From NCBI RefSeq assembly GCF_003991155.1, contig NZ_CP031293.1: 64,000 nt of DNA, one strand, 5' to 3'. The position numbers were made by a program, and so were the translations under genes. The notes beneath the pieces are model-generated. The model worked only from the letters and a program-made list of their open reading frames with translations. It made no database searches and was not told the origin of the DNA. Below, piece after piece: positions 1 through 50,703 of this stretch. Position 1 is the first letter of the stretch. Every line of letters starts with the position of its first letter. Source of the stretch: Escherichia coli (GTDB taxonomy: Bacteria; Pseudomonadota; Gammaproteobacteria; Enterobacterales; Enterobacteriaceae).

Positions 1-1292
1 ACGTCGCCGTTTTCCAGCGTGACTTTCGGCTGAATAAACATCTTGCCGACCGGAGAGTGCTTCGCTTCGCCCTCACGCACCAGCGCACCGCCGTAATATT
101 GCGGCATCGGCTTGAAGCGCATTTCAAGGAAGTAGCGTTTTACTGGCGGCAGATAATTCAACAGCCAGGAAACGCCGTCACGTAATGTACCCTGCCAGCG
201 TTTCGGCGGAGCCAGCACGTTGCCCGCCGTCACGGACAGGTCAATCATCGCTTTGGCGTGATCGCGACGTTCTTGTTGATAGGTATCGAGCAGCGCATCG
301 CGGGCTTTCCCCTGGATAACCAACGCCAGTTTCCATGCGAGGTTAAAGGCGTCGCGCATACCACTGTTATAGCCCTGCCCCTGCCACACCGGCATGATGT
401 GTGCGGCATCGCCCGCCAGCAGTACGCGATCAATACGAAAACGTTGCGCCAGTCGCGCGTTGTGGGTGTAGACACGCTGGCGAATCAATTCAACATTGTC
501 CGGATTAGGCAGCACTTTGCTTAACAGCTTGCGCATATTTTGCGGCTCACGCAGCTGTTCTTCGGTTTCTCCCGGCATCACCATAAATTCAAAGCGACGT
601 ACCGCATGAGGCAGCGCGGCAGAAACATACGGGCGCACCGGATCACAACACAAATAGATATGCGGCGTACTTAACGGATCGTTGGCGATATCTACCACAA
701 TCCACTGATTTGGCGCAGTTTTACCTTCAAACGGCACATTCAGGGTGCGACGGACAAAACTTGCCCCACCATCACAGGCCACCAGCCACTGGGCTTTGAC
801 CGTTTCCCGCTGCCCTTCTTCCGTTTTTAGGTGCAAGGTCACTTCGTCATCTTGCTGGCTGAAGGCCTCCAGCTCGCGGGAAAACAGGCAGCGCACATTC
901 GGAAAACGCGACAATCCTTCCAGCATCACCGCATCGACCTGAGGCTGAATAAAGGCGTTACGGCGCGGCCAGCCAAATTCATCGGTCATTGGCTGAATAT
1001 CAGCAAAACAGCGACCTTTTGGGGTGAGAAAACGCATCGCGTGCCACGGCGTAGTGTGCGGCAGAACATTATCGACCAGGCCAACCGACTGCATGGTGCG
1101 CAGCGCCTCGTCATCAATACCAATCGCACGCGGGTAGTCGATCAACTTATCGAGTTTCTCCACCACCAGCACGTCAATGCCCATCTGGCCGAGATAGTTC
1201 GCCATCATCAGCCCGACCGGACCGGCACCAGCGATCGCCACCTGAACGCTATGGTTAACAGCAGGCTGGATGTCAGGGTGTTGTATTGCCAT
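1..1292 (-). CDS. mhpA: 3-(3-hydroxyphenyl)propionate hydroxylase, 5' part of gene (C-terminus lies beyond window start)
   Basis: Reverse-strand translation from ATG at 1292..1290 gives [46 protein letters not shown] with an FAD-binding GxGxxG motif; divergent from mhpR as in E. coli. The plus-strand ORFs in the track (258..524, 831..1358) are antisense artefacts. Confidence 0.85.
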
Positions 1293-1433
1293 TTCAGTAC
1301 CTCACGACTCGGACAAAATGCCGTTGCGCGCACAGTACAGCGCAACTTGTTTTGTTAAAAACATGTAAATGATTTTTTATTGTGCGCTCAGTATAGGAAG
1401 GGTGTTTTCGGCTACAATCAAAACATGCCCGAA

Positions 1434-1450
1434 TGTGCACCAGGTGCACA
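1434..1450. promoter_or_regulatory. 17-bp perfect palindrome TGTGCACCAGGTGCACA in the mhpR-mhpA divergent region; probable MhpR operator
   Basis: Palindrome read directly from the sequence; position between the IclR-type regulator and its target operon. Assignment to MhpR is from memory of the mhp promoter literature. Confidence 0.55.
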
Positions 1451-1482
1451 ACGTTGTTTTAACTATATAAATGTCAATTAAT

Positions 1483-2316
1483 ATGCAGAACAATGAGCAG
1501 ACGGAATACAAAACCGTGCGCGGCTTAACCCGCGGTCTAATGTTATTAAATATGTTAAATAAACTTGACGGCGGTGCCAGCGTCGGGCTGCTGGCGGAAC
1601 TCAGCGGCCTGCATCGCACCACTGTGCGGCGACTGCTGGAGACGCTGCAGGAAGAGGGATATGTCCGGCGTAGTCCCTCCGATGATAGTTTCCGTTTGAC
1701 CATCAAAGTGCGGCAATTAAGCGAAGGATTTCGTGACGAACAGTGGATTTCTGCACTGGCTGCCCCACTGCTGGGCGATCTGTTGCGCGAAGTGGTATGG
1801 CCGACAGATGTGTCCACGCTGGATGTTGATGCAATGGTGGTACGCGAAACCACCCATCGTTTCAGCCGATTATCCTTTCACCGGGCAATGGTCGGGCGAC
1901 GGTTACCGCTTCTGAAAACCGCCTCGGGCCTGACCTGGCTGGCCTTTTGCCCGGAACAAGAACGCAAGGAATTAATCGAGATGTTAGCCTCCCGCCCCGG
2001 TGATGACTATCAACTGGCACGAGAACCGTTAAAGCTGGAAGCCATTCTGGCGCGCGCGCGCAAAGAGGGGTACGGACAGAACTACCGCGGCTGGGATCAG
2101 GAGGAGAAGATCGCCTCTATCGCCGTACCGCTGCGCAGTGAACAACGGGTGATTGGCTGTCTGAATCTGGTGTATATGGCGAGCGCAATGACCATCGAAC
2201 AGGCAGCGGAAAAGCATCTTCCGGCGCTGCAACGGGTGGCAAAACAGATCGAAGAAGGGGTTGAATCGCAGGCTATTCTGGTAGCGGGAAGGCGAAGCGG
2301 CGTGCATTTACGCTGA
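1483..2316 (+). CDS. mhpR: IclR-family transcriptional activator of the mhp operon
   Basis: ORF 1471..2316; second in-frame ATG at 1483 gives MQNNEQTEYKTVRGLTRG and the 277-aa length I recall for MhpR; IclR-type N-terminal HTH. Confidence 0.9.
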   Translation: MQNNEQTEYKTVRGLTRGLMLLNMLNKLDGGASVGLLAELSGLHRTTVRRLLETLQEEGYVRRSPSDDSFRLTIKVRQLSEGFRDEQWISALAAPLLGDLLREVVWPTDVSTLDVDAMVVRETTHRFSRLSFHRAMVGRRLPLLKTASGLTWLAFCPEQERKELIEMLASRPGDDYQLAREPLKLEAILARARKEGYGQNYRGWDQEEKIASIAVPLRSEQRVIGCLNLVYMASAMTIEQAAEKHLPALQRVAKQIEEGVESQAILVAGRRSGVHLR

Positions 2317-2392
2317 CACCATCGAATGGCGCAAAACCTTTCGTGGTATGGCATGATAGCGCCCGGAAGAGAGTCAATTCAGGGTGGTGAAT

Positions 2393-3475
2393 GTGAAACC
2401 AGTAACGCTATACGATGTCGCAGAGTATGCCGGTGTCTCTTATCAGACCGTTTCCCGCGTGGTGAACCAGGCCAGCCACGTTTCTGCGAAAACGCGGGAA
2501 AAAGTGGAAGCGGCGATGGCGGAGCTGAATTACATTCCCAACCGCGTGGCACAACAACTGGCAGGCAAACAGTCGTTGCTGATTGGCGTTGCCACCTCCA
2601 GTCTGGCCCTGCACGCGCCGTCGCAAATTGTCGCGGCGATTAAATCTCGCGCCGATCAACTGGGTGCCAGCGTGGTGGTGTCGATGGTAGAACGAAGCGG
2701 CGTCGAAGCCTGTAAAGCGGCGGTGCACAATCTTCTCGCGCAACGCGTCAGTGGGCTGATCATTAACTATCCGCTGGATGACCAGGATGCCATTGCTGTG
2801 GAAGCTGCCTGCGCTAATGTTCCGGCGTTATTTCTTGATGTCTCTGACCAGACACCCATCAACAGTATTATTTTCTCCCATGAAGACGGTACGCGACTGG
2901 GCGTGGAGCATCTGGTCGCATTGGGTCACCAGCAAATCGCGCTGTTAGCAGGTCCATTAAGTTCTGTCTCGGCGCGTCTGCGTCTGGCGGGCTGGCATAA
3001 ATATCTCACACGCAATCAAATTCAGCCGATAGCGGAACGGGAAGGCGACTGGAGTGCCATGTCCGGTTTTCAACAAACCATGCAAATGCTGAATGAGGGC
3101 ATCGTCCCCACTGCGATGCTGGTTGCCAACGATCAGATGGCGCTGGGCGCAATGCGCGCCATTACCGAGTCCGGGCTGCGCGTTGGTGCGGATATCTCGG
3201 TAGTGGGATACGACGATACCGAAGACAGCTCGTGTTATATCCCGCCGTTAACCACCATCAAACAGGATTTTCGCCTGCTGGGGCAAACCAGCGTGGACCG
3301 CTTGCTGCAACTCTCTCAGGGCCAGGCGGTGAAGAGCAATCAGCTGTTGCCCGTCTCACTGGTGAAAAGAAAAACCACCCTTCCGCCCAATACGCAAACC
3401 GCTTCTCCCCAGGCGTTGGCAGATTCTTTAATGCAGCTGGCGCGACAAATTTCCCGACTGGAAAGCGGGCAGTGA
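2393..3475 (+). CDS. lacI: lactose operon repressor LacI
   Basis: GTG start at 2393 gives (M)KPVTLYDVAEYAGVSYQTVSRVVN (LacI HTH) and 360 aa; C-terminus ...ARQISRLESGQ. A few substitutions versus the K-12 sequence as I recall it. Confidence 0.97.
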   Translation: MKPVTLYDVAEYAGVSYQTVSRVVNQASHVSAKTREKVEAAMAELNYIPNRVAQQLAGKQSLLIGVATSSLALHAPSQIVAAIKSRADQLGASVVVSMVERSGVEACKAAVHNLLAQRVSGLIINYPLDDQDAIAVEAACANVPALFLDVSDQTPINSIIFSHEDGTRLGVEHLVALGHQQIALLAGPLSSVSARLRLAGWHKYLTRNQIQPIAEREGDWSAMSGFQQTMQMLNEGIVPTAMLVANDQMALGAMRAITESGLRVGADISVVGYDDTEDSSCYIPPLTTIKQDFRLLGQTSVDRLLQLSQGQAVKSNQLLPVSLVKRKTTLPPNTQTASPQALADSLMQLARQISRLESGQ

Positions 3476-3488
3476 GCGCAACGCAATT
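3468..3488. promoter_or_regulatory. lac auxiliary operator O3
   Basis: GGCAGTGAGCGCAACGCAATT overlapping the lacI 3' end, matching the O3 sequence. Confidence 0.8.
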
Positions 3489-3509
3489 AATGTGAGTCAG
3501 CTCACTCAT
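3488..3509. promoter_or_regulatory. CRP (CAP) binding site of the lac promoter
   Basis: TGTGAGTCAGCTCACT, i.e. TGTGA-N6-TCACT, upstream of the -35 element. Confidence 0.85.
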
Positions 3510-3523
3510 TAGGCACCCCAGGC

Positions 3524-3553
3524 TTTACACTTTATGCGTCCGGCTCGTATGTT
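3524..3553 (+). promoter_or_regulatory. lac promoter, -35 TTTACA (3524..3529) and -10 TATGTT (3548..3553), 18-bp spacer
   Basis: Canonical lacP hexamers and spacing read directly from the sequence. Confidence 0.9.
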
Positions 3554-3559
3554 GTGTGG

Positions 3560-6672
<3,113 letters not shown>

Positions 6673-6678
6673 TAATAA

Positions 6679-7977
<1,299 letters not shown>

Positions 7978-20707: not shown

Positions 20708-20883
20708 CAATTGACTGAATAAAATTAAATGTTTAATTTCAATTTGTTAGAGATAAAGTCATGAAGTAATCCGCAAATATGTGTTTCAGTTAACGTTTCA
20801 GGCAATGTTTCACCGCGTTTCATTGCAACAATTATGAAACAAGGCTAAACCCAATATTCGGTTTCTTAACTTTGCGGTGCGCT

Positions 20884-22470
20884 ATGGCACATCCACCACG
20901 GCTGAATGACGACAAACCGGTTATCTGGACGGTATCGGTGACGCGCCTGTTCGAGCTGTTTCGCGATATCAGCCTCGAGTTTGATCACCTGGCGAACATT
21001 ACCCCTATTCAGCTTGGCTTTGAAAAAGCAGTGACCTATATCCGCAAGAAACTGGCAAACGAACGCTGCGACGCCATCATCGCCGCTGGCTCTAACGGCG
21101 CATATCTTAAAAGCCGCCTGTCAGTGCCAGTTATTTTGATTAAACCGAGCGGCTACGATGTGTTACAGGCACTGGCAAAAGCCGGAAAACTCACCTCTTC
21201 TATCGGCGTTGTCACTTATCAGGAAACTATTCCGGCACTGGTGGCGTTTCAAAAAACCTTTAATTTGCGCCTCGACCAACGTAGCTACATTACCGAAGAA
21301 GACGCGCGCGGGCAGATTAACGAGCTGAAAGCTAACGGCACCGAAGCGGTGGTCGGCGCGGGGCTGATTACCGATCTGGCAGAAGAAGCCGGAATGACCG
21401 GAATTTTTATCTATTCCGCCGCCACCGTGCGCCAGGCATTCAGCGATGCGCTGGATATGACGCGCATGTCGTTACGCCATAACACTCACGATGCCACCCG
21501 CAACGCTCTGCGTACTCGTTACGTGCTGGGCGATATGCTCGGTCAATCACCACAGATGGAACAGGTACGGCAGACTATTTTGCTGTATGCCCGCTCCAGT
21601 GCGGCGGTGTTGATTGAGGGGGAAACGGGGACGGGCAAAGAGCTGGCGGCCCAGGCGATTCATCGGGAATATTTTGCCCGCCACGATGCGCGACAGGGCA
21701 AAAAGTCGCATCCGTTTGTTGCCGTCAACTGCGGGGCGATTGCCGAATCGCTGCTGGAAGCGGAGCTGTTTGGCTATGAGGAAGGAGCGTTTACCGGCTC
21801 GCGACGTGGAGGTCGCGCCGGGCTGTTCGAAATTGCCCACGGCGGTACGCTGTTTCTGGATGAGATTGGCGAAATGCCGCTACCTTTGCAGACTCGCCTG
21901 TTACGGGTGCTGGAAGAAAAAGAGGTCACCCGCGTCGGCGGGCATCAGCCTGTTCCGGTGGATGTGCGAGTCATTAGCGCCACTCACTGCAATCTGGAAG
22001 AAGATATGCGGCAAGGGGAGTTTCGCCGTGATCTGTTTTATCGGCTGAGTATTTTGCGTCTGCAATTGCCACCACTGCGCGAGCGGGTGACGGATATTCT
22101 GCCGCTGGCGGAAAGCTTTTTGAAAGTGTCTCTGGCGGCGCTCTCCGCCCCGTTTTCTGCCGCATTACGCCAGGGGTTACAGGCAAGCGAAACCGTGCTG
22201 GTGCACTACGACTGGCCGGGAAATATTCGTGAACTGCGCAATATGATGGAGCGACTGGCGCTGTTTTTAAGTGTGGAACCGACGCCGGATTTAACGCCGC
22301 AATTTTTGCAGCTGCTACTGCCGGAACTGGCGCGCGAGTCGGCGAAAACTCCCGCTCCACGCTTACTGACACCACAACAGGCACTGGAGAAATTTAAAGG
22401 CGATAAAACAGCAGCGGCGAATTATTTAGGTATCAGCCGGACGACGTTCTGGCGGCGGCTGAAAAGCTGA
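20884..22470 (+). CDS. prpR: sigma-54-dependent activator of the prp operon
   Basis: ORF 20872..22470; ATG at 20884 gives [15 protein letters not shown]; AAA+ Walker A GETGTGKE and GAFTGS motif; C-terminal HTH. Confidence 0.93.
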
Positions 22471-22567
22471 ACTGCCGAATGCAGCGCGAACGCTTTATCC
22501 GGCATAAATTTCAATAGATGATCGCCGATAAACTTACGCATCGGGGATGTTTATATAGGGTTCAGAA

Positions 22568-22843
22568 TTACTTCTTCTTATAAATATCCGCCGTGCCGTG
22601 GATCTTATTGTCAGTCTGACCAGAGGTCAGCACCAACACATCAGCCCCTTTTTCATCCGCTTTTTTGATCAGATCTTCTTTCGCATCTGCGGTCGACATT
22701 TCATTACTGGTTGAAATATCACCTATTTTTTCATATTGCGATGCAACCTTTTCAAATTCCGCTTTGGTCATTAATTCTGCGGCATAGACATTGGTAACGG
22801 CAAACGCTAACGCACCGACTAACATTTTAGAGATTATTTTCAT
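22568..22843 (-). CDS. yahO: small secreted DUF1471 (BhsA/YdgH-like) protein
   Basis: 91 aa with N-terminal signal peptide [21 protein letters not shown]; matches YahO length and position. Confidence 0.8.
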
Positions 22844-22989
22844 ATTACGGCTCCAGAGTTGTTATCACACTATCACCCACCCACATTATTGGGTTGATTA
22901 ATAATTAGTTCAGTCAGGGCATAAACGCCAGTAACCGGAAATAAGACACTTTGTGATCTCTCTCGCACCCGATTATTTTTGGTAGAAAT

Positions 22990-23661
22990 ATGATGAAGTT
23001 ACTTCACTTATTTATGGATGAAATCACTATGGATCCTTTGCACGCCGTTTATCTGACCGTAGGACTGTTCGTGATTACTTTTTTTAATCCGGGAGCCAAT
23101 CTCTTTGTGGTAGTACAAACCAGCCTGGCTTCCGGTCGACGCGCAGGAGTGCTGACCGGACTGGGCGTGGCGCTGGGCGATGCATTTTATTCCGGGTTGG
23201 GTTTGTTTGGTCTTGCAACGCTAATTACGCAGTGTGAGGAGATTTTTTCGCTTATCAGAATCGTCGGCGGCGCTTATCTCTTATGGTTTGCGTGGTGCAG
23301 CATGCGCCGCCAGTCAACACCGCAAATGAGCACACTACAACAACCGATTAACGCCCCCTGGTATGTCTTTTTTCGCCGCGGATTAATTACCGATCTCTCT
23401 AACCCGCAAACCGTGTTATTTTTTATCAGTATTTTCTCAGTAACATTAAATGCCGAAACACCAACATGGGCACGTTTAATGGCCTGGGCGGGGATTGTGC
23501 TCGCATCAGTTATCTGGCGAGTCTTTCTTAGTCAGGCGTTTTCTTTGCCTGCTGTGCGTCGTGCTTATGGGCGTATGCAACGCGTTGCCAGTCGGGTTAT
23601 TGGTGCAATTATTGGTGTATTCGCGCTACGCCTGATTTACGAAGGGGTGACGCAGCGGTGA
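22990..23661 (+). CDS. yahN: LysE/RhtB-family amino-acid exporter
   Basis: 223-aa hydrophobic ORF; matches YahN. Confidence 0.82.
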   Translation: MMKLLHLFMDEITMDPLHAVYLTVGLFVITFFNPGANLFVVVQTSLASGRRAGVLTGLGVALGDAFYSGLGLFGLATLITQCEEIFSLIRIVGGAYLLWFAWCSMRRQSTPQMSTLQQPINAPWYVFFRRGLITDLSNPQTVLFFISIFSVTLNAETPTWARLMAWAGIVLASVIWRVFLSQAFSLPAVRRAYGRMQRVASRVIGAIIGVFALRLIYEGVTQR

Positions 23662-23677
23662 GCAGATAATTTACTCT

Positions 23678-23923
23678 CTACGTAATCAACCTGATTTGCC
23701 GGATCCCGACCATCGGCGATGATAGCCCCCGTAATGCGTGGTCCTTATTTCCGATAAGTTTACTTGAGTCTTTAGCTTCCCATTTCAGCCCACTCTCCCC
23801 TGTGTGGGCTTTTTTCATTGCTTTGACCCGTCCTGAATAGCCAAACAATGGCAATGTTTCACTTTGCAGGGATGATAATAAGGGGATCTGATTCAGAAGA
23901 GTTATGAAAAGTTGGACCGCCAT
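23678..23923 (-). CDS. yahM: small protein of unknown function
   Basis: ORF 23678..23953; internal ATG at 23923 gives the 81-aa MAVQLFITLLNQIPLLSSLQ... that I recall for YahM. No functional motif seen. Confidence 0.55.
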   Translation of the reverse strand: MAVQLFITLLNQIPLLSSLQSETLPLFGYSGRVKAMKKAHTGESGLKWEAKDSSKLIGNKDHALRGLSSPMVGIRQIRLIT

Positions 23924-24336
23924 CGAGGCCTCGAACCCCGTACCATACAACAATCCTGGTTGTCGTCTGCTCTTCCTGATGAGCTAATGGCGGTTTTTGA
24001 TATGAGCCTTACAGCATATTTTCTGTCAGGCTTGAGTGCGATACGTAAGATACAGAAAAGACCCCACACAAACATGATGGAATTATGATTTTTTTCATAT
24101 GAATGTCAACCCACACATTCACAAAACATCTGCATGAGATCATTTTTTTATACACCGTATAGCTGCGAAACCACTGCTGATGCTTTTTTAAGCGAAGCGT
24201 CGCCGATCACAACAAAATATCGGCGAAAAAGGCGGTGGAATGCCATTTGGCATACGGATATACAGATGAAATGATCACCTGCTTTGCGATTCACTCTCTG
24301 GTGGAATAACAACTCGCAGGTGGAACCCTTTCTGAA

Positions 24337-25152
24337 CTAAAGAGTGTAGCGGATTTTAACGTGCTTATTTACAGGATAATATCTGTCACCTAATTCCTGC
24401 ACTCTATTAGATATCCATTCATTTAATCGCGCATCATCTCTGTATGTTTTTACGTCCAGAACAGAGAGCAATAACCTCACCAGTGATTCAGGAAAAACAG
24501 GGTAGATATTTTTTAAGTGTAATAATAATCCATGCGCAAGCGCCTGCTTAATGGGCGCGTCGGTCTCCGGGATAGACGACATTTCGCGAAGCCATTTTTC
24601 CACATGCATACACTCTTTCCCTTTAGGGAAAAGTCTCAGCAAAGGCATATGGTGTTCAAGAAGAATACATTTGCAATCTGTTCGCACTGAATCGATAAAC
24701 TGCACTAATTTCTTAAGCCCGGTAAAGCGTCCAGCCTGCACATTTGCTTTAATATCAAGAAACGCATCATCCTGGTCATATACCCAAACTGTCCCTTTTT
24801 GATTTTCAAGTATGCGAAAAACAAACTTAACCGGGTGATCAGGGTAATCCATCCAGTCATAAAATCCAGGGAAATCATTAAACTGCACATTTATGGTGAG
24901 TGCGTTATCGTCTGACCACTCACAGTCTCGCACGGCTGCCATAAGATGAATGAGTTTGTCATCATCGACTAAATCATCACGACAATCATAAGGATAATCA
25001 TAATATTGTTTAATCAAAACCTTGAATATATCGACACAGGAAACCAGAGAGCTTTTGATATCCTCCGGTAACTGGTTGTTTTTAACCGTATTAAGTATGC
25101 TTTGTTGCGTATATGGCATCAAATTATTGTGTGGAGCTTTTAATGATATCAT
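24337..25152 (-). CDS. yahL: protein of unknown function, A+T-rich gene
   Basis: 271-aa ORF MISLKAPHNNLMPYTQQSILNTVKNNQLPEDIK; no recognisable domain; length matches YahL. Confidence 0.7.
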   Translation of the reverse strand: MISLKAPHNNLMPYTQQSILNTVKNNQLPEDIKSSLVSCVDIFKVLIKQYYDYPYDCRDDLVDDDKLIHLMAAVRDCEWSDDNALTINVQFNDFPGFYDWMDYPDHPVKFVFRILENQKGTVWVYDQDDAFLDIKANVQAGRFTGLKKLVQFIDSVRTDCKCILLEHHMPLLRLFPKGKECMHVEKWLREMSSIPETDAPIKQALAHGLLLHLKNIYPVFPESLVRLLLSVLDVKTYRDDARLNEWISNRVQELGDRYYPVNKHVKIRYTL

Positions 25153-25394
25153 CGCGATCTCTCTTAAATAAAAATAAACGTCGCAGATAATAAAGCTCTG
25201 ATTAAACCAGGCACTATCAGAAATCGCTCATAACTAACGTGTGAAGTATTGTGTCCTGGAGGGAGTTAATTTAACAATTTGAATTTACGTTATAGGTTTT
25301 ACTGCTACTTTGATATTATTTCGCTCTCCTTAACTAAAAAGTTAAGTGGAGAGCGAAGTTAATATGTTAAACCACAGGATATTTATTAATTGTT

Positions 25395-26444
25395 TCAGTC
25401 TGTTAGTGTGCGATTATCGATAACAAAACGATATTTCACATCTCCTCGCAGCATTCGCTCATAGGCTTCATTAATTTGATCGGCCCGAATCATCTCTATA
25501 TCAGCCACGATGCCATGTTCGGCGCAAAAATCGAGCATCTCCTGAGTTTCTGGAATGCCGCCAATCATAGAACCGGCTATCGCACGGCGTTTCATGATCA
25601 GGTTGAAAACTTCCGGCGATTTATGCGGTGTCGCAGGCGCACCAACCAGCGTCATGGTGCCATCGCGCTTCAGCAAGGTGGTAAAATCGTCGAGATTATG
25701 TGGCGCAGCTACTGTATTCAAAATGAAATCGAAACTCTTCAGATGAGTCGCCATCTCATCGGCATTGCGTGAGTTAACAACTTCATCGGCCCCCAGGGCT
25801 TTTGCCGCTTCGCGTTTTGACTCAGACGTGGTAAACGCCACCACATGCGCCCCCATCGCGTGGGCCAGCTTGATCCCCATATGTCCCAGACCGCCGATGC
25901 CAACCACGCCCACTTTTTTACCCGGCCCGGCCTGCCAGTGACGTAGCGGCGAATACGTGGTGATCCCTGCACACAACAAAGGAGCCACCGCCGCCAGCTG
26001 CTCTTGCGGGTGACGAATACGCAAAACATATCGCTCATGAACGACGATCTGTTGTGAGTAGCCGCCCAGAGTATGGCCCGGTTCGTCCGGCGTCGGCGAG
26101 TTATAGGTGCCGGTCATGTGATCACAGTAGTTTTCCAGCCCGTCTTCACACTCTTCACAATGTTTACAACTGTCGACAATACAGCCGACACCGACCAGAT
26201 CGCCCGGCGCATGTTTTTCTACCTGATCACCAACGGCTACCACACGCCCCACAATTTCATGACCCGGCACGCAGGGGTAAACCGTCCCCGCCCACTCGGA
26301 ACGGACCTGGTGGATATCGGAATGGCAGACGCCACAGTAAGCGATTTCAATTTTGACATCATGCGGTCCCGGTTCACGCCGGGTAATATCCATCGGTTCC
26401 AGCGGTTGTTTAGCGGAATATGCACCAACAGCTCTGATCTTCAT
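25395..26444 (-). CDS. yahK: NADPH-dependent aldehyde reductase (zinc alcohol dehydrogenase family)
   Basis: 349 aa; zinc-ADH motifs CGVCHSD and GHEIVGRV, Rossmann motif GVVGIGGLGHMG. Confidence 0.9.
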   Translation of the reverse strand: MKIRAVGAYSAKQPLEPMDITRREPGPHDVKIEIAYCGVCHSDIHQVRSEWAGTVYPCVPGHEIVGRVVAVGDQVEKHAPGDLVGVGCIVDSCKHCEECEDGLENYCDHMTGTYNSPTPDEPGHTLGGYSQQIVVHERYVLRIRHPQEQLAAVAPLLCAGITTYSPLRHWQAGPGKKVGVVGIGGLGHMGIKLAHAMGAHVVAFTTSESKREAAKALGADEVVNSRNADEMATHLKSFDFILNTVAAPHNLDDFTTLLKRDGTMTLVGAPATPHKSPEVFNLIMKRRAIAGSMIGGIPETQEMLDFCAEHGIVADIEMIRADQINEAYERMLRGDVKYRFVIDNRTLTD

Positions 26445-35542: not shown

Positions 35543-36631
35543 TCAACCACCGGCTTTCATTACCCATTCAGAGATAAATTTATTACCCGGTACTGGCGGA
35601 GAGTACAAATAGCCCTGCAAAAAGTGAACGCCTTTGCCGATCATTAAATCCGCCTGCTCCTGGGTTTCTACCCCTTCCGCCACGATACTCAGACCAGGCT
35701 TACGCGCCAGTTCGACAATATTGTCCACAATATGACCGGATATTTCGTCCACGCTCGCCATTTGCACAAATGACTTATCGATCTTAATAAAATCGACCGG
35801 GAACGCCTGCAAGTAACGATAGGTTGCATAACCCGTACCAAAGTCATCCAGCGCAAAGGTAATGTTGTGCTGATGAAGGCTGTCAAATATCGCTCTGGCT
35901 TCTGGCGTTACCGGAATAGGGTTACGTTCCGTTAACTCGAGAACCAGTTTGATTTTATCGTTACCTAATTTCTTAACCAGGTTCAGACACTCTTTTTCAA
36001 ATCCTGCGGCCAAAAAACATCCTGCCGAGACGTTGATGCCAATATGGAAATTATCCGGCAGCAAATGTTTTACTGGCATCAGAATATCCGCAGTCTGTTT
36101 CATCAGCTGGCGAGTCATTATGACGATAAGACCAGATGACTCCGCCAGAGGAATAAACTGATCCGGTGGGATAATTCCCGTTTGCGGATGTTCCCAGCGA
36201 ACAAGCACCTCACAGCCCGTCAGTACCCCAGTCTGCGCGCAGAAAACCGGTTGGATCCACGGTTTAAATTCATGGTTTTCCAACGCCAGACTGATGGCTT
36301 CAGGCGTGACGATATGGTGATAGTGATTATCATTAATATATTTGTGACTATTATTACCCGTGGCGGATATGATCTCCGGATTGTACTGAAAGAAAATATC
36401 CCGCCAGAAAGTAATATCGCTCTGAATCCCCAGTTTCTCAAAGAGCTGTTTCTTTTGATGTGAAATGGTCTTTGCACTGCGATTTCTGTACTGTGATATT
36501 TCTGTTACAGACATTCCCTGCATCAGCAGCTTGAGTAGCAGTCGTTCTTTCTCGGATACGCTACCAGGCAATGACAAATGAACCGTTGTACCGAACTCTT
36601 GCAGAAAAACACGAAAATCACATGAATTCAT
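35543..36631 (-). CDS. pdeL: c-di-GMP phosphodiesterase with LuxR-type HTH and EAL domain
   Basis: ORF 35543..36637; ATG at 36631 gives MNSCDFRVFLQEF (362 aa); EAL-domain motifs LVLELTE and DDFGTGYA. Confidence 0.9.
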   Translation of the reverse strand: MNSCDFRVFLQEFGTTVHLSLPGSVSEKERLLLKLLMQGMSVTEISQYRNRSAKTISHQKKQLFEKLGIQSDITFWRDIFFQYNPEIISATGNNSHKYINDNHYHHIVTPEAISLALENHEFKPWIQPVFCAQTGVLTGCEVLVRWEHPQTGIIPPDQFIPLAESSGLIVIMTRQLMKQTADILMPVKHLLPDNFHIGINVSAGCFLAAGFEKECLNLVKKLGNDKIKLVLELTERNPIPVTPEARAIFDSLHQHNITFALDDFGTGYATYRYLQAFPVDFIKIDKSFVQMASVDEISGHIVDNIVELARKPGLSIVAEGVETQEQADLMIGKGVHFLQGYLYSPPVPGNKFISEWVMKAGG

Positions 36632-37461
36632 GAACACACCTTTTATCTTTTATCGCTGTTCAGTATGAGTGATTACCTGTGGATTCCTGAGCACACATAA
36701 GGGGTAACCATAAACATTAGCGATGCCATACGTATAACATCCCACATCACTATCAAGAAGATTATCTTTACCTCTGATGCTCGCTCAAAAACAGTTACGC
36801 TAAATACCTTAAAAAGGTAATCACAAGTCAAACTCAGGAGATAATCACGCAAGAATGCAATATTAAAATTCAGATACTCATTTTTGGTAATAAAGAAGTA
36901 GTTGGACTATTTCGATATTTATAATTTCCCACTACGTATTGACGCCCATTCATGAGTAAAGGCGCATTATATGAATTTAACAATCCAGATCAACTGAAAA
37001 TACCTCAACCTCATAAACACATAGCGTCAACATTCAATGACATAATGAGTAAAGATGTTGGTTATGCATACACGTCATTACTCTATGCCTATCCCTTAAC
37101 AACCTGCTTTTTAAGACTGAATCCATTCAGCAATAGATAGCCAACATTATAACAATGACAATAAAAACAATATTTAAAACAATCAATAAAATATCAGGCA
37201 CAGACAATTAAACCTTAAACAACAAACGGTTACATTGATTTTAGTTGATTTGCGCTACGCGTTCCCCATGAATAAAGCGTCATTTCAAATTAGCACCAAT
37301 ATTTACATTAAATAAGACTAAGCTTATTGAACATTCACAACAGTCCAAACGTAGGTTTTGGGCTTCAATAGTTCTTTTCTTTTTTATTATCTGTTGCCTG
37401 GCAATCATCAATCGATACTAAGGGCTTAACTGTACAGATATAACGTATCAAGAGGTAAGAG

Positions 37462-37494
37462 AAACCGCGCCATATGCAGACATGGCGCGGTTTT
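37462..37494 (-). terminator. probable intrinsic terminator downstream of betT
   Basis: Perfect 12-bp inverted repeat AAACCGCGCCAT/ATGGCGCGGTTT around an 8-nt loop; on the minus strand the stem is followed by UUUCUCUU; 13 bp past the betT stop. Confidence 0.55.
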
Positions 37495-37506
37495 ATGCAA
37501 AAACAA

Positions 37507-39540
37507 TCACGCGTCCGGGAACATCACGCTATGGCCCGGCGCTTCACGATGGAGATGGATAAAGTTAAGATGCCGCTCGTACTGGTCAAGAATATCGGTG
37601 ATCACCTGCTCTTTGCTGTAGTCCATCAGGTCGTTGCCCTGGCTGCCTTCTAACAGGAAGGTTTCCAGCCGGTAGTAGGTCGATTTACCGCTACGTGCGC
37701 GGTAGGTAAAGCCCGGCACCGAATATTGCTGCGGCCAAATCTGATAGACAAAGTTTTGCTCTTCGCCCATATGCACCAACAAATCCAGATGCCCCAACTG
37801 TTGTCCCTCTTCCGGCGGCAGGCTTTTTAGCTCCACGTACGCGCCGCGCAACCGCAACTCCTGCGCCACTTCTTCCATTGCCGGGTAACAGACCGTCTCC
37901 ATCATCTGTTTAGTGTAACGCGTGCCCGGATAATTCATCAGGCGCGAGAGACGTTTTTTCCAGCTCAGGCGATCCTGAAGCCCCAGCGGTCGCGGTGCGG
38001 TATCGCGGTTGGCACTTTCACGGCGGTAATCTTCTACCTTCAGAGATTTATACAACCCCGCCATCACGAAGAAGATCACAAAGCTGAACGGCAGGCCCAT
38101 AATCACCGTGGTGTTTTGCAGCGCGGATATCCCGTTGGTCATCAGCATGCCGAGCGTCAGCAGGCCAATCGCCACCGACCAGAAGACGCGCAGCCAGCCG
38201 GGGGCGTCGCTGTTGATATCTTTAAGCTGCGAGGTGAAATTCCCCAGCACCAGCGCCCCGGAGTCCGCCGAGGTCACATAAAACAGCAGGCCAGTAATGG
38301 TGGCGACGGAGGCGCTAAAGGTAAACGCCGGATACTGCGCCAGCAGGCTGTAGAAGCCGCGCTCCGGATGGACCATCGCTTCCTCGGCAAATGCCGCGCC
38401 GCCGTGGATGATTTCATACAGCGCGCTATTGCCGAACACCGAGAGCCATAACAGCGTGAAGGTAAACGGAATAATCAACGTGCCCAGCACGAACTGGCGA
38501 ATGGTACGCCCACGCGAGATACGCGCCAGGAACAAGCCGACAAACGGCGACCATGCCACCCACCATGCCCAGAAGAAGAGCGTCCAGTTATTCATCCACT
38601 CAACCGGACGGTCGAAGGCAAAACTGTTGAGCGTCATGCCCATAAAGCGATTCACATAGTCGCCAACATTCAGCACCAGTGCATTAAGCAGGAACGAAGT
38701 GTCGCCCATAAACAACACGAAAAGGATCAATCCCAGCGCCAGCGCAACGTTAAGTTCCGATAACACGCGAATGCCCTTATCGACACCGGAGGTGACAGAG
38801 ATCGTTGCGATGATCACCGACAAGGCGATCAGTGCCGCTTTCGCCGCCATTGAATCGGGAATATCAAACAGTACGCTCAAGCCATAGTTAAGCTGCACCA
38901 CACCAATACCGAGCGTAGTGGCAATACCGAAGATGGTGCCGATCACCGCTGCAATATCCACTGAGTGACCTATCGGCCCGTTAATCCGTTTACCGAAGAT
39001 CGGGTACAGCGCTGAGCGGATGGTGAGCGGCAAATTATAACGATAGCTAAAGTATCCGAGCGCCATGCCCATCAGCGCATACATCGACCAGCCGGTTAAG
39101 CCGTAGTGAAACAGCGTCCAGACCATCGCCTGACGCGCGGCCTCAATCGTCTGACCCGCGCCTTCCGGCGGCTGCATATACTGCGTTACCGGTTCGGCTA
39201 CGGAAAAGAACATCAGGTCGATACCGATCCCGGCAGCAAACAGCATCGCCGCCCAACTCAGCAGACTGAATTCCGGTTTTGATTGTTCTGGCCCGAGCTT
39301 CACCGAACCAAAACGCGAACAAGCGATACAGACCACAAAGACAATATAGAGCGTTGCCGCCAGCAGATAGTACCAACCGAAGGTTTTAGAAACCCAGTCC
39401 AGCGTGCGGTCAATCCACAGGGCCGAGAAGTCGCGAAACAGGATCGTTGTCAGGGAAAACAACAAAATCAGTCCGGCGGAAGTGTAAAACACCACCGGAT
39501 TGATTTTGTCCTTTTCCCTGCTGTGTGAAAGGTCTGTCAT
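37507..39540 (-). CDS. betT: high-affinity choline transporter (BCCT family)
   Basis: 677-aa polytopic ORF MTDLSHSREKDKINPVVFYTSAGLILLFS; divergent from betIBA. Confidence 0.95.
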   Translation of the reverse strand: MTDLSHSREKDKINPVVFYTSAGLILLFSLTTILFRDFSALWIDRTLDWVSKTFGWYYLLAATLYIVFVVCIACSRFGSVKLGPEQSKPEFSLLSWAAMLFAAGIGIDLMFFSVAEPVTQYMQPPEGAGQTIEAARQAMVWTLFHYGLTGWSMYALMGMALGYFSYRYNLPLTIRSALYPIFGKRINGPIGHSVDIAAVIGTIFGIATTLGIGVVQLNYGLSVLFDIPDSMAAKAALIALSVIIATISVTSGVDKGIRVLSELNVALALGLILFVLFMGDTSFLLNALVLNVGDYVNRFMGMTLNSFAFDRPVEWMNNWTLFFWAWWVAWSPFVGLFLARISRGRTIRQFVLGTLIIPFTFTLLWLSVFGNSALYEIIHGGAAFAEEAMVHPERGFYSLLAQYPAFTFSASVATITGLLFYVTSADSGALVLGNFTSQLKDINSDAPGWLRVFWSVAIGLLTLGMLMTNGISALQNTTVIMGLPFSFVIFFVMAGLYKSLKVEDYRRESANRDTAPRPLGLQDRLSWKKRLSRLMNYPGTRYTKQMMETVCYPAMEEVAQELRLRGAYVELKSLPPEEGQQLGHLDLLVHMGEEQNFVYQIWPQQYSVPGFTYRARSGKSTYYRLETFLLEGSQGNDLMDYSKEQVITDILDQYERHLNFIHLHREAPGHSVMFPDA

Positions 39541-48427: not shown

Positions 48428-49753
48428 ATGAATAAATATCAGGCAGTTATTATTGGTTTTGGCAAGGCTGGAAAAACATTAGCCGTCACGCTGGCAAAAG
48501 CAGGTTGGCGTGTGGCTCTCATCGAACAATCAAATGCAATGTATGGCGGGACCTGTATTAATATCGGCTGTATCCCAACCAAAACATTGGTTCATGACGC
48601 ACAGCAGCACACAGATTTTGTCCGTGCCATACAGCGTAAAAATGAAGTGGTTAATTTTTTACGTAATAAGAATTTTCATAATCTTGCGGATATGCCCAAT
48701 ATCGACGTGATCGACGGCCAGGCGGAGTTTATCAATAATCATAGCCTGCGTGTTCATCGGCCTGAGGGAAATCTGGAAATTCATGGCGAGAAAATTTTTA
48801 TTAATACCGGTGCAAAAACCGTGGTTCCGCCAATTCCTGGAATTACCACCACGCCTGGTGTATATGACAGCACCGGATTACTTCATCTAAAAGAATTGCC
48901 TGGGCATTTAGGTATTTTGGGCGGCGGATATATTGGCGTTGAGTTCGCCTCTATGTTCGCTAATTTTGGCAGCAAGGTAACCATTTTAGAAGCAGCTTCG
49001 CTGTTTTTGCCTCGGGAAGATCGGGATATTGCTGATAACATCGCGACGATTTTACGCGATCAGGGCGTCGATATTATCCTCAATGCCCATGTGGAGCGAA
49101 TCAGTCACCATGAAAATCAAGTGCAAGTGCATAGCGAGCACGCCCAACTGGCGGTGGATGCACTGTTAATAGCTTCCGGTCGTCAACCGGCTACCGCTTC
49201 TTTACATCCAGAAAATGCCGGTATCGCAGTAAACGAGCGCGGGGCAATTGTCGTTGACAAGCGATTACATACCACCGCAGACAATATTTGGGCGATGGGA
49301 GATGTTACCGGCGGGCTGCAATTTACTTACATATCACTAGATGATTACCGCATTGTACGTGATGAGTTACTGGGTGAAGGCAAACGTAGTACTGATGATC
49401 GGAAAAATGTGCCTTATTCCGTATTTATGACACCGCCACTGTCCAGGGTTGGTATGACAGAAGAACAAGCCAGAGAGAGTGGTGCTGATATTCAGGTGGT
49501 GACATTGCCTGTAGCTGCAATTCCGCGCGCCAGAGTGATGAACGATACCCGTGGGGTATTAAAAGCGATTGTTGATAATAAAACCCAACGTATATTAGGG
49601 GCATCACTGCTGTGTGTTGACTCCCACGAGATGATCAATATAGTGAAAATGGTGATGGATGCCGGGCTGCCTTATAGCATATTACGCGATCAGATATTTA
49701 CTCATCCGTCGATGAGCGAATCACTCAATGATCTATTTTCATTAGTCAAATAA
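48428..49753 (+). CDS. rclA: pyridine nucleotide-disulfide oxidoreductase
   Basis: ORF 48401..49753; ATG at 48428 gives MNKYQAVIIGFGKAGK (441 aa); redox-active disulfide motif GGTCINIGCIPTK. Confidence 0.9.
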   Translation: MNKYQAVIIGFGKAGKTLAVTLAKAGWRVALIEQSNAMYGGTCINIGCIPTKTLVHDAQQHTDFVRAIQRKNEVVNFLRNKNFHNLADMPNIDVIDGQAEFINNHSLRVHRPEGNLEIHGEKIFINTGAKTVVPPIPGITTTPGVYDSTGLLHLKELPGHLGILGGGYIGVEFASMFANFGSKVTILEAASLFLPREDRDIADNIATILRDQGVDIILNAHVERISHHENQVQVHSEHAQLAVDALLIASGRQPATASLHPENAGIAVNERGAIVVDKRLHTTADNIWAMGDVTGGLQFTYISLDDYRIVRDELLGEGKRSTDDRKNVPYSVFMTPPLSRVGMTEEQARESGADIQVVTLPVAAIPRARVMNDTRGVLKAIVDNKTQRILGASLLCVDSHEMINIVKMVMDAGLPYSILRDQIFTHPSMSESLNDLFSLVK

Positions 49754-49861
49754 ACTCAAAATCAGACGCCAGAACAAATATTCTGGCGTCTCAGAGAAAA
49801 TAATCTTATTAATTCCCTGTTATTATATAACTTCTTAATCACTTCATTGATGGTATTTTAT

Positions 49862-50098
49862 ATGTTTAAAAAACCTGTTTTATTTGCAACACTATTATCT
49901 GGCGTTATGGCATTTTCCACCAATGCAGATGATAAAATAATTCTGAAACATATCAGCGTCTCGTCAGTATCAGCATCACCGACAGTTCTGGAGGATGCCA
50001 TTGCTGATATGGCCAGAAAATATAATGCTTCATCCTGGAAAGTCACATCGATGCGAATTGATAATAATTCAACCGCAACAGCAGTATTGTATAAATAA
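49862..50098 (+). CDS. rclB: small periplasmic DUF1471 protein
   Basis: ATG at 49862 gives MFKKPVLFATLLSGVMAFSTNA (signal peptide), 78 aa. Confidence 0.78.
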   Translation: MFKKPVLFATLLSGVMAFSTNADDKIILKHISVSSVSASPTVLEDAIADMARKYNASSWKVTSMRIDNNSTATAVLYK

Positions 50099-50109
50099 GG
50101 ATGTTTACA

Positions 50110-50703
50110 ATGGAGAAATACCTGCACCTGTTAAGTCGGGGAGATAAAATTGGCCTGACATTGATTCGTCTGAGTATTGCGATTGTTTTTATGTGGATTG
50201 GGTTATTAAAGTTTGTCCCTTACGAGGCAGACAGCATTACACCATTCGTCGCAAACAGTCCACTAATGTCGTTCTTTTATGAACACCCGGAAGACTATAA
50301 ACAGTATCTGACTCACGAAGGCGAATACAAACCAGAAGCAAGAGCATGGCAAACGGCTAATAATACCTATGGTTTTTCCAACGGTCTTGGCGTCGTGGAG
50401 GTGATTATTGCTCTGCTGGTTTTGGCTAATCCTGTCAATCGCTGGTTAGGTTTATTGGGTGGGCTGATGGCATTTACCACGCCGCTGGTAACACTCTCAT
50501 TTTTAATCACCACCCCGGAGGCATGGGTACCCGCATTGGGTGACGCTCATCATGGTTTCCCTTATTTATCCGGTGCTGGTCGCCTGGTATTGAAAGATAC
50601 TCTGATGCTGGCAGGTGCTGTCATGATAATGGCAGATTCGGCGCGGGACATTCTTAAACAACGCAGTAATGAATCCAGTTCAACGTTAAAAACTGAATAT
50701 TGA
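50110..50703 (+). CDS. rclC: inner-membrane protein (DUF417)
   Basis: ATG at 50110 gives MEKYLHLLSRGDKIGLTLIRLSIAIVFMWIGLLKF, 197 aa, hydrophobic. Confidence 0.82.
   Translation: MEKYLHLLSRGDKIGLTLIRLSIAIVFMWIGLLKFVPYEADSITPFVANSPLMSFFYEHPEDYKQYLTHEGEYKPEARAWQTANNTYGFSNGLGVVEVIIALLVLANPVNRWLGLLGGLMAFTTPLVTLSFLITTPEAWVPALGDAHHGFPYLSGAGRLVLKDTLMLAGAVMIMADSARDILKQRSNESSSTLKTEY

Follow-up and report, generated by a model that had tools for sequence, protein, structure and literature searches.

What does the low-GC interval between yahK and yahN of Escherichia coli encode? We analysed a window of 64,000 nucleotides of E. coli DNA that runs in the orientation opposite to K-12. The initial annotation placed two genes in this interval, yahL and yahM, and described both as markedly A+T-rich orphans, with a composition suggestive of horizontal origin and likely H-NS silencing. 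Both reading frames and their coordinates prove correct in an ORF check, and in RefSeq the two genes carry these names in E. coli genomes identical or nearly identical to this one. We think it fairly likely that the interval is a mosaic of four parts: yahL itself, a hairpin that belongs to yahK, a non-coding RNA gene, and an incidental ORF that carries the name yahM (Table 1).

Table 1. Features of the yahK-yahN interval, in window coordinates
Feature	Position	Strand	Basis or remark
yahM annotated ORF	23678-23923	-	81 aa from an internal ATG; the full ORF has 91 aa
Intrinsic-terminator-like hairpin and T-run for yahN	23787-23815	+	Antisense inside the yahM ORF
tRNA-like RNA gene, 81 nt, encoded CCA	23913-23993	-	ARAGORN, fold, conservation
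Transcribed leader, 82 nt	23994-24075	-	Upstream of the tRNA-like core
Near-consensus sigma-70 promoter	24082-24109	-	TTGACA, 16-nt spacer, CATAAT; 11/12 consensus matches; TSS 24075
Low-GC yahL islet, ~1.2 kb	24132-25319		Homology breakpoints versus E. albertii and E1V33
Deletable segment, 835 bp (yahL ORF plus 13 and 6 nt)	24324-25158		Junction mapped in SCU-306
yahL CDS	24337-25152	-	271 aa
Stem-loop of the yahK 3' UTR	25320-25357	-	38 nt after yahK stop

Base composition sets yahL apart. Its GC content is 0.393 and its GC3 is 0.39 in a window with an overall GC of 0.51, which corresponds to the 2nd percentile among 816-bp windows. The flanking genes are clearly different, since yahN, yahK, yahJ, yahI and prpR have GC contents of 0.49-0.57 and GC3 values of 0.48-0.69. 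The interval as a whole (23662-25394) has a GC content of 0.403, below the 1st percentile. The description as markedly A+T-rich thus fits yahL and does not fit yahM, whose GC of 0.463 (GC3 0.51) lies between those of its neighbors yahN (0.49) and yahO (0.41).

As judged from sequence comparison, yahL is a genuine protein gene that is constrained, weakly expressed and found only in Escherichia. Its dN/dS is 0.06-0.09 within E. coli and 0.16 against a divergent lineage, in which the ORF is full-length with 79% amino-acid identity. Expression is very low (<1 ppm), and RNA polymerase holoenzymes have been reported to bind within the gene in genomic SELEX. The earlier statement that no motif can be assigned stands: searches of Pfam, NCBIfam and PADLOC, a sequence search of the PDB and a tblastn search of phages give no significant domain or fold match for YahL, and the AF2 model is of moderate quality (pLDDT 62.8). 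Two Pfam hits are sub-threshold and were rejected, SDH_protease (E = 0.0018, 17.8 bits versus a cutoff of 31.3) and WWE_5 (E = 0.039). The only remote homologue, a paralogue with 24% identity that is present in a few E. coli strains, sits in another low-GC islet. Encoded beside it is DUF2686/YjfZ, a family that is likewise E. coli-specific and similar in size to YahL. Kinship between that family and YahL was rejected, with an hhalign probability of 0.1%. P0010, which had appeared to be a distant homologue (48-50% identity), is uninformative: it represents E. coli yahL itself, in unchanged synteny but frameshifted in a noisy assembly.

The islet that contains yahL occurs in E. coli and in the one divergent lineage. 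E. albertii and Escherichia sp. E1V33 lack it; their homology to the window ends at 24131 and restarts at the hairpin and the 3' end of yahK. YahL has previously been published as confined to E. coli and Shigella and serves as a qPCR marker. Our sequence searches agree with this restriction, with the difference that a 24%-identical paralogue exists and that the marker is not universal. In fact, 1156 of the 5176 matching E. coli genomes (~20%) lack full coverage; the incomplete-coverage genomes that we sampled show a 55%-coverage pattern, and in strain SCU-306 the junction is that of the 835-bp deletion. No direct repeats flank this deletion. Because the flanks of the islet are retained, the absence of yahL from these complete genomes is a secondary loss. 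We envisage that the E. coli lineage gained the islet in the yahK-yahN spacer, or that the other lineages lost it, and that yahL was later deleted again in about one-fifth of E. coli. Low GC, a patchy distribution and a remote homologue in a low-GC islet are consistent with the horizontal origin proposed before, or with a lineage-specific one. From these features we infer a foreign origin and probable targeting by H-NS, for which the very low expression and the polymerase binding within yahL give indirect support; literature searches for H-NS at yahL found nothing.

The hairpin had been proposed to end yahK transcription or to regulate yahL. We find it exactly at 25320-25357 (TTCGCTCTCC...GGAGAGCGAA), where none is expected by chance. 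On the yahK-sense RNA it folds with -22.9 kcal/mol (z = -5.5), and none of 200 shuffles is as stable. Five lineages retain the outer 10-bp helix; one of the changes in it is compensatory, and three U.G wobbles can pair only on the yahK-sense RNA. The hairpin is also conserved in species without yahL and is older than yahL, so it is not part of the yahL islet. Its 3' flank reads AUAAUAUCAAAG on the yahK strand and GUUAAUAUG on the opposite strand, and a terminator scan did not report it. Because there is no U-tract by the hairpin on either strand, we reject a canonical intrinsic terminator.

REP-type and other protective stem-loops in 3' UTRs define mRNA 3' ends after Rho-dependent termination. 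The yahK hairpin resembles them in being a stable, conserved stem-loop that follows soon after a stop codon without a U-tract, although it is a single-copy sequence and not a member of the REP family. The RNA ends also match this pattern. Published Term-seq places 3' ends of yahK at MG1655 344011 and 344013 (window 25317 and 25315), 3 and 5 nt after the hairpin, and a Rho termination region just downstream at MG1655 344049 (approximately window 25279). The proposed role in ending yahK transcripts is thus borne out: the hairpin is a 3' stem-loop of the yahK mRNA that marks its 3' end. Transcription most likely ends through Rho a few tens of nucleotides past the hairpin, and 3' exonucleases would then trim the RNA back to the stem. 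Such end formation would insulate yahL from yahK read-through.

On the other side of yahL lies a previously unannotated tRNA-like gene, which overlaps the start codon of yahM and is the sole ARAGORN call in the 64 kb. Its most stable predicted structure is a cloverleaf that has a 7-bp acceptor stem, a D arm, a T arm and a 3' CCA. In particular, the canonical tertiary nucleotides U8, A14, G18G19, A21, G53-T54-T55-C56-R57-A58 and C61 are present; TA follows the acceptor stem, the D loop is ATCAGGAA, and the T arm reads CGGGG-TTCGAGG-CCTCG. The anticodon arm is aberrant. In the minimum-energy fold its stem has 7 bp and its 6-nt loop reads CCAGGA, and in the ARAGORN register the loop is CAGGAUU (A33, U37), 5 nt after the D stem. 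A normal arm, with a 5-bp stem, a 7-nt loop, U33, a purine at 37 and one nucleotide linking it to the D stem, is absent. The label tRNA-Ser that ARAGORN assigns does not fit, as the variable region is 6 nt and lacks the long arm of class II; the label derives only from the triplet GGA. The Rfam tRNA model, RF00005, gives no match even at E <= 10 in the 126 nt searched, and none in E1V33, in a run that scored functional argN at 53.6 bits and ileZ and argO at 68-72 bits. This RNA is unable to decode like a normal tRNA.

The element is nevertheless conserved as a unit. All 81 nt are identical in six lineages, which include K-12, SCU-306, the divergent lineage, E. albertii and E1V33, whereas its flanks are 40-90% identical across lineages. 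The promoter and leader are 83-91% identical, and the next 95 nt downstream of the core fall to 40-47% in E. albertii and E1V33. For comparison, yahN and yahK DNA is 86-90% identical. Of 5170 E. coli records, 4821 have the element without any change and another 301 differ from it by G.U to G-C in the T stem, so that the canonical form and this variant account for 99.1% of 5169 records; the exact-match scan left E. fergusonii, E. marmotae and E. ruysiae unscored. The only common variant is one that restores a Watson-Crick pair. None of the 81 positions differs between the Escherichia species compared, so selection on the RNA or on its fold is as strict as that on a true tRNA. We also considered the element as an integrase attachment site and rejected this, since the sole truncated copy among the 5170 records is an IS1 insertion.

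Where does such a sequence come from? Alignments trace it to the argN slot within the ileZ-argN-argO cluster of lambdoid and Stx phages. It is 74-86% identical over its full length to argN or degenerate argN copies from Stx phages, phiP27, mEp460 and a plasmid-borne prophage region. With phage argN, a tRNA-Arg(UCG), it has in common an identical or almost identical acceptor stem, D arm, T arm, discriminator U and encoded CCA. A 4-nt insertion after the D arm is shared with the degenerate argN of phiP27 (85% identity), mEp460 and many prophages. The differences are equally clear. The chromosomal copy lies by itself between yahL and yahN, with no phage genes in the neighborhood, rather than in a phage late region downstream of the antiterminator Q with ileZ and argO, and it has its own sigma-70 promoter and leader. 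It lacks the UCG anticodon and, unlike functional argN, is not recognized by RF00005. Its central 20 nt are unique and occur in no viral contig; in IMG/VR, the chromosomal-type element has 0 matches. The chromosomal copy does not vary from species to species. The phage copies, in contrast, decay into 13 variants, most of them with the T loop destroyed and none with the chromosomal central segment. Because the phage copies decay and lack this segment, gene conversion from prophages is excluded as the cause of the conservation. Literature searches for a tRNA-like element at this locus, and for argN, ileZ and argO, found nothing useful.

The tRNA-like gene has the signals of a transcription unit. 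Across Escherichia lineages the -35 hexamer of the promoter is invariant and the -10 nearly so, and the promoter plus leader (24131-23994) remains 83-85% identical in E. albertii and E1V33. The cloning primer for the 'yahM 5' UTR' of Adams et al. begins at ATGTTTGTGTGGGG, that is, at window position 24075, in agreement with the TSS. A Reg-Seq preprint reports the yahM promoter as active and repressed by IHF; we find no exact IHF consensus near it. yahM has also been found among the transcripts of a small-RNA-enriched pool, and it is reported to be induced upon adhesion to epithelial cells and under antibiotic stress. In published Term-seq from three laboratory conditions, there is no mature CCA end of the element (MG1655 345414), and therefore no mature tRNA-sized RNA accumulates under those conditions. 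The true tRNAs thrW, argU and proK have CCA ends with 1e7-2e8 reads in such data. The only curated 3' end of the element is at position 57, in the T stem, with ~1300-4400 reads, within a Rho termination region. The 139-nt RNA truncated there is predicted to form an alternative helix between the 5' strand of the acceptor and positions 48-56, which would explain this 3' end, although the stability of this fold does not exceed that of shuffled sequences (z = -0.39).

Convergent with this unit is yahN, whose terminator (AGCCCAC...GTGGGCT followed by TTTTTT; -13.9 kcal/mol, z = -4.3 on the + strand) is 90% conserved in E. albertii. The convergent layout is kept in all four lineages, and ExcludonFinder reports overlapping convergent yahM-yahN transcripts in at least 50% of RNA-seq samples.

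How does yahM itself fit into this picture? The comparison of genomes does not support the claim that it is a second orphan protein gene. The ORF is broken in four lineages, by in-frame stops at codon 12 (O157:H7 and the divergent lineage), codon 32 (E. albertii) and codon 18 (E1V33), and there is no protein-level constraint: non-synonymous to synonymous changes number 8:1, 4:1 and 6:0, where 8:1 and 6:0 are within-E. coli comparisons, and dN/dS is at or above 1. The body of the ORF is the least conserved part of the locus. Its ATG falls within the 3' acceptor strand of the tRNA-like core, and a highly significant Rho termination region, at MG1655 345585 (approximately window 23742), lies inside it. 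Most E. coli keep the yahM ORF open, with a GAGG 5 nt upstream of its ATG. From its sequence, yahM is probably not a conserved protein-coding gene. The ORF is probably an incidental reading frame that covers the 3' end of the tRNA-like core, a variable spacer and sequence antisense to the yahN terminator, and it could still be a young E. coli-specific protein.

A first alternative keeps yahL and yahM as two horizontally acquired, H-NS-silenced orphan protein genes, with an irrelevant tRNA-like overlap. Thousands of RefSeq genomes list both as protein genes, the yahM frame is open in most E. coli and has its GAGG, the region is A+T-rich, and the holoenzyme binding within yahL is typical of A+T-rich foreign DNA. 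However, yahM is not especially A+T-rich, its premature stops and its 8:1 and 6:0 ratios are those of a frame without constraint, its body is the least conserved at the locus, and the strong Rho termination within it is expected of untranslated RNA. We therefore regard this account as improbable. Could the element instead be an inert prophage tRNA pseudogene, identical among lineages by chance, in a mutational cold spot or through prophage recombination? Its closest phage relatives do look like decaying pseudogenes, it fails the Rfam model, Term-seq holds no mature CCA-ended RNA, and one strain tolerates an IS1 insertion in it. Against this, 81 of 81 positions are identical in two lineages whose leaders are only 83-85% identical, for which we estimate a chance of ~0.84^81, or ~1e-6 per lineage. 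The central 20 nt, specific to the chromosome, are as frozen as the rest, the sole common variant restores pairing, and the promoter is conserved and active. We consider an inert relic improbable as well.

The alternatives that accept a functional RNA differ in how it would act. The element may work only in cis, with a switch between the short alternative fold and the cloverleaf setting Rho read-through antisense into yahN, in an excludon-type control. The preserved convergence with yahN, the overlapping transcripts, the main 3' end inside the element and in the Rho region, and the predicted helix that ends exactly at that 3' end all fit. Yet a Rho attenuator would rarely require all 81 nt to be fixed, the encoded CCA and the canonical loops of the D and T arms among them, shuffled controls match the alternative fold in stability, and the yahN terminator already ends yahN transcripts, so we consider cis-only control possible but doubtful. 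Equally tentative is the idea that a phage tRNA pseudogene has been domesticated as a trans-acting, IHF-controlled, non-decoding tRNA mimic that serves as a decoy, sensor or regulator. Such a mimic would retain every nucleotide that tRNA-handling factors require for recognition; these may include RNase P, enzymes that act on the CCA and 3' end, modification enzymes or a synthetase, as well as tRNA-cleaving toxins, colicins, and phage or defense nucleases.

In the mosaic that we favor, a sigma-70 promoter, reportedly repressed by IHF, would start an RNA at 24075 that comprises the 82-nt leader and the 81-nt CCA-ending cloverleaf. The transcript would continue through sequence that is not conserved and lies antisense to the 3' end of yahN, and Rho would stop it. 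We infer that the product is a tRNA mimic or structured regulatory RNA that is seen by tRNA-binding or tRNA-processing factors and is not an adaptor in translation. A pseudo-tRNA or tRNA-like RNA with a non-decoding role has a precedent in the 'tRNA-Other' of Bacillus cereus. At the level of the gene, the likeness suggested by this analogy is that both are chromosomal and under selection and combine a tRNA-like fold with an anticodon arm unfit for decoding. The E. coli element differs in its origin from a phage tRNA and in that no mature-size RNA appears in published Term-seq.

Both yahL and yahM are members of the E. coli 'y-ome', and recent work still terms yahM "completely uncharacterized". 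For yahL, an "E. coli-specific" qPCR marker is missing from about one-fifth of complete E. coli genomes. Should yahM prove not to encode a protein, the promoter, Term-seq, Rho, excludon and differential-expression data that are filed under its name need to be re-read. If our reading is true, a new conserved structured RNA would exist in the best-studied bacterium, hidden in K-12 under the mis-annotated yahM, and it would show clearly how a host can keep a phage tRNA relic under selection as strict as that on a true tRNA.

Our window is E. coli DNA, 100% identical to strain 2016C-3878 over the query and about 97% identical to K-12, whose map runs in the reverse orientation. The initial annotation placed the open reading frames and the hairpin of the yahL-yahK gap correctly, and described yahL and yahM as A+T-rich orphan genes with no recognisable domains. 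A sliding GC analysis puts the interval from the yahN stop to the yahK stop at a GC content of 0.403, below the 1st percentile among equal-sized windows. The A+T-richness holds for yahL (GC 0.393 and GC3 0.39, against 0.49-0.57 and 0.48-0.69 in the flanking genes), but not for yahM, whose composition is not unusual (GC 0.463, GC3 0.51). YahL and YahM gave no significant match in Pfam and no match in NCBIfam or PADLOC. The earlier observations were largely right; of their interpretation, the part on yahL and the hairpin was partly correct and the part on yahM was wrong.

Coordinates of the features discussed (window positions, except for the L012 contig) and their identity to E. coli in two other lineages
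Feature	Position	Strand	Identity, E. albertii	Identity, Escherichia sp. E1V33	Remark
prpR	20872-22470	+			
yahO	22568-22843	-			
yahN	22990-23661	+			
yahM	23678-23923	-			
yahN terminator	23787-23815	+			-13.9 kcal/mol, z = -4.3
yahN terminator hairpin	23817-23789		0.90	absent	
Downstream spacer	23912-23818		0.47	0.40	
tRNA-like core	23993-23913	-	1.00	1.00	
Promoter + leader	24131-23994		0.83	0.85	
yahL	24337-25152	-			
yahK 3' hairpin	25320-25357				
yahK	25395-26444	-			
yahJ, then yahI					beyond yahK in local gene order
L012 islet features	6001-6828 and 942-1772				P0027 / DUF2686 neighbourhood

Three further low-GC stretches (36401-37600, 49201-50400 and 62401-63600; GC 0.36-0.42) may be other foreign islets. 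In the prpR/yahO gap, a weak Rfam naRNA4/REP-like match (22446-22504, minus strand; 26.9 bits, E = 0.073, under the gathering score) is probably a REP-type palindrome. The yahN/yahO divergent intergenic region (22844-22989) holds a high-confidence CRP ChIP-seq site, TGTGATCTCTCTCGCA, in ETEC H10407 (PMC4287617).

ARAGORN makes one call in the whole 64 kb, an 81-nt element that overlaps the yahM start codon. Its RNA folds as a cloverleaf in which all 7 bp of the acceptor stem pair; the discriminator is U and the CCA is encoded. The D arm (GCUC-AUCAGGAA-GAGC) and the T arm (CGGGG-UUCGAGG-CCUCG) are canonical, and the 'anticodon' arm is aberrant, its stem having 7 bp and its loop 6 nt. The ARAGORN label, tRNA-Ser(GGA), is unsupported because the long variable arm is missing, and the Rfam tRNA model does not match the element even at E <= 10.

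Homology ties the element to a phage tRNA cluster, ileZ-argN-argO, which Stx and other lambdoid phages carry downstream of Q; the matching slot is the middle one. Identity is 74% to the functional phage tRNA-Arg(UCG), but 85-86% to degenerate copies in phiP27 and a plasmid-borne prophage region (the latter labelled tRNA-OTHER by PGAP), which share its 4-nt insertion after the D arm. A degenerate argN slot between ileZ and argO is very common in lambdoid prophages: it is found in more than 120 IMG/VR contigs (L016-L135), as 13 sequence variants in which the T loop is mostly destroyed and replaced by G/C-rich sequence, a picture suggestive of a decaying pseudogene. Degenerate copies also occur at two other comparison loci (L004 2501-2582 and L007 2501-2588); in public records they are unannotated or labelled tRNA-OTHER. 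The central segment of the chromosomal version is in no IMG/VR viral contig.

The chromosomal core is identical at 81 of 81 positions in every lineage. Given a local divergence of about 16%, we infer a chance probability for such identity of roughly 1e-6 in each lineage. Nor can recombination with prophage copies account for it, since the central 20 nt belong to the chromosomal copy alone. A species scan, which used one genome per species and required an exact match and so could miss diverged copies, found the element at this locus only, in four records (E. albertii, Escherichia sp. E1V33, a divergent genome labelled E. coli and an E. coli MAG). Among E. coli records, 4821 of 5170 are exact, and 301 more carry the O157-type T-to-C change, which converts the sole G.U pair of the T stem to G-C. 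For the two 81-mers that flank the element, only 7% and 1% of records have the exact window allele, a rough control given that the window strain has minor alleles there. The only truncated copy in the 5170 records is that of E. coli DETEC-S792, where IS1 lies inside the element after position 62 (L136 7001-7815).

The reading of yahM as an orphan protein gene is not supported by this comparison. Its ATG lies within the 3' acceptor strand of the core, and the body of the ORF consists of non-conserved spacer and the antisense of the yahN terminator. Premature stops interrupt the frame: codon 12 in O157:H7 (CAG to TAG) and also in the divergent lineage, codon 18 in E1V33, and codon 32 in E. albertii. 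Within E. coli the ratios of non-synonymous to synonymous changes are 8:1, 4:1 and 6:0. The ORF also contains a Rho termination region of very high significance, at MG1655 345585 (p = 3e-33; PMC7815308), as expected for an untranslated RNA. Most likely, yahM is an incidental ORF; a young protein confined to E. coli is the less likely alternative.

Upstream of the element, a promoter at 24109-24082 combines TTGACA, a 16-nt spacer and CATAAT (11 of 12 consensus matches), and its -35 hexamer is invariant across lineages. The 'yahM 5' UTR' cloning primer of Adams et al. (PMC7815308) begins at 24075, 7 nt past the -10 hexamer. A Reg-Seq preprint describes an active yahM promoter with IHF as its repressor, which we infer to be the same promoter. 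yahM is among the differentially expressed transcripts of a small-RNA-enriched pool, and convergent overlap of yahM and yahN transcripts has been reported in most RNA-seq samples examined.

In the Term-seq data of Adams et al. (PMC7815308), true tRNAs have CCA ends with 1e7-2e8 reads, whereas the element has no curated CCA end in three conditions. Its sole 3' end, MG1655 345390 (about 4300, 4400 and 1300 reads), lies within a significant Rho termination region (Rho score 1.85, intrinsic-terminator score 1.28; PMC7815308) and corresponds to element position 57 (window 23937), on the 5' side of the T stem. Thus, no mature tRNA-sized RNA accumulates in LB or M63 cultures. When the 139-nt species from the TSS to position 57 is folded, positions 48-56 (AUGG..CGG) can form a helix with the 5' acceptor strand, giving a compact three-way structure that ends one nucleotide before the mapped 3' end. 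This predicted fold, whose stability is not above shuffled controls (z = -0.39), is a possible reason for the end at position 57. Positions 58-81 are nevertheless frozen. The full cloverleaf might form under inducing conditions only, or might be needed transiently, for processing; the element might also toggle between two folds as a cis-acting device controlling antisense transcription into yahN.

The palindrome beside yahK, TTCGCTCTCC-N18-GGAGAGCGAA, is unique in the window (0 expected by chance). It lies on the yahK strand, 38 nt past the stop codon, and folds at -22.9 kcal/mol (z = -5.5) as yahK-sense RNA. The hairpin is older than yahL: it is kept beside the yahK 3' end in E1V33, which has yahK and no yahL, and beside a yahK 3'-end remnant in E. 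albertii, which has lost yahK and has no yahL. In E. albertii NBRC 107761 (L008 1260-1500), hairpin and short remnant sit between the tRNA-like promoter region and yahJ. Five lineages preserve the outer 10-bp helix, with a single compensatory change (U-A to G-C) and with three U.G wobbles that pair only on yahK-sense RNA; 89% of alignment cells pair, versus 42-49% with partners slid. With five sequences only, this covariation is supportive rather than proof.

In published Term-seq (Adams et al., 2021; PMC7815308), two 3' ends, MG1655 344011 and 344013, come from different growth-condition data sets; they map to window 25317 and 25315, 3 and 5 nt past the stem, and a significant Rho termination region lies at MG1655 344049 (about window 25279; PMC7815308). 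The proposal that the hairpin ends yahK transcription or regulates yahL is therefore upheld as regards the yahK 3' ends, but no U-tract follows it on either strand and it predates yahL. Our best reading is Rho-dependent termination just beyond the hairpin, with the stem defining and protecting the 3' end after the transcript is presumably trimmed back to it. As a side effect, yahL would be insulated from yahK read-through.

E. albertii and E1V33 have the neighbouring genes and no yahL. Their homology to E. coli ends at 24131 and restarts at the hairpin, which delimits an E. coli-type islet of about 24132-25319. Exactly at its left edge, where this homology ends, a 14-nt inverted repeat (24132-24145 / 24269-24282, 86% complementary, 123 nt apart) may be an insertion scar. 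The full region is present in 4020 of 5176 matching E. coli genomes, and the sampled genomes without it lack exactly 24324-25158, the yahL ORF with a further 13 and 6 nt; the junction has no direct repeats. Since they retain the islet flanks, yahL loss is a secondary deletion. In yahL-less strains (L003 3582-4001; L136 880-5313), an ABC-transporter operon with an AI-2-type substrate-binding protein lies upstream of yahK in the place of yahJ and yahI, so the deletion marks a lineage with other gene content on that side.

Selective constraint marks yahL as a real gene: the ORF is intact in the divergent lineage (L010; DNA about 86% identical), with 79% amino-acid identity and a dN/dS of 0.16, and dN/dS among E. 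coli is 0.06-0.09 (0.02 for yahK). An exhaustive phmmer search of 1.84 billion representatives returned E. coli variants and fragments plus a single true remote homologue, P0027 (275 aa, 24% identity, BLASTP E = 2e-19), from a source labelled E. coli. P0027 sits in an islet of GC 0.30 (L012), adjoining a DUF2686 (YjfZ-like) gene and an invasin/intimin-like gene (1350 aa); kinship between YahL and DUF2686 was rejected (hhalign probability 0.1%). A PDB sequence search and phage tblastn with YahL gave no match. By these searches the family is confined to Escherichia, which agrees with a publication that uses YahL as a signature protein for E. coli/Shigella (PMC11057252). The AlphaFold model, built on a shallow alignment, is moderate (pLDDT 62.8, pTM 0.63); it predicts helices at the N terminus, a sheet of five strands and a helical bundle at the C terminus. 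No fold could be assigned.

YahL expression is below 1 ppm, and yahL transposon mutants were nonetheless scored with a fitness defect (bioRxiv 038851). In genomic SELEX, RNA polymerase holoenzymes bind within yahL (PMC5493296; older K-12 position 343660), strongly with each of three minor sigma factors listed (intensities 5.6, 27.1 and 17.8), which suggests that this A+T-rich ORF has promoter-like sites within it. With its low GC, patchy occurrence and near-silence, the yahL islet fits a foreign, probably H-NS-targeted element, consistent with the horizontal origin suggested for this Escherichia-confined orphan.

As uncharacterised genes, yahL and yahM are already known. RefSeq genomes carry no annotation of the tRNA-like gene, and it goes unmentioned in the recent papers on promoters, 3' ends and the y-ome in which yahM is discussed. 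What is new is the nature of the conserved unit at yahM, a tRNA-like RNA gene descended from phage. Its aberrant anticodon arm, the lack of a covariance-model match and the absence of a mature RNA in the Term-seq data set it apart from the tRNA family proper, and it belongs instead with the tRNA-like or pseudo-tRNA RNA genes.
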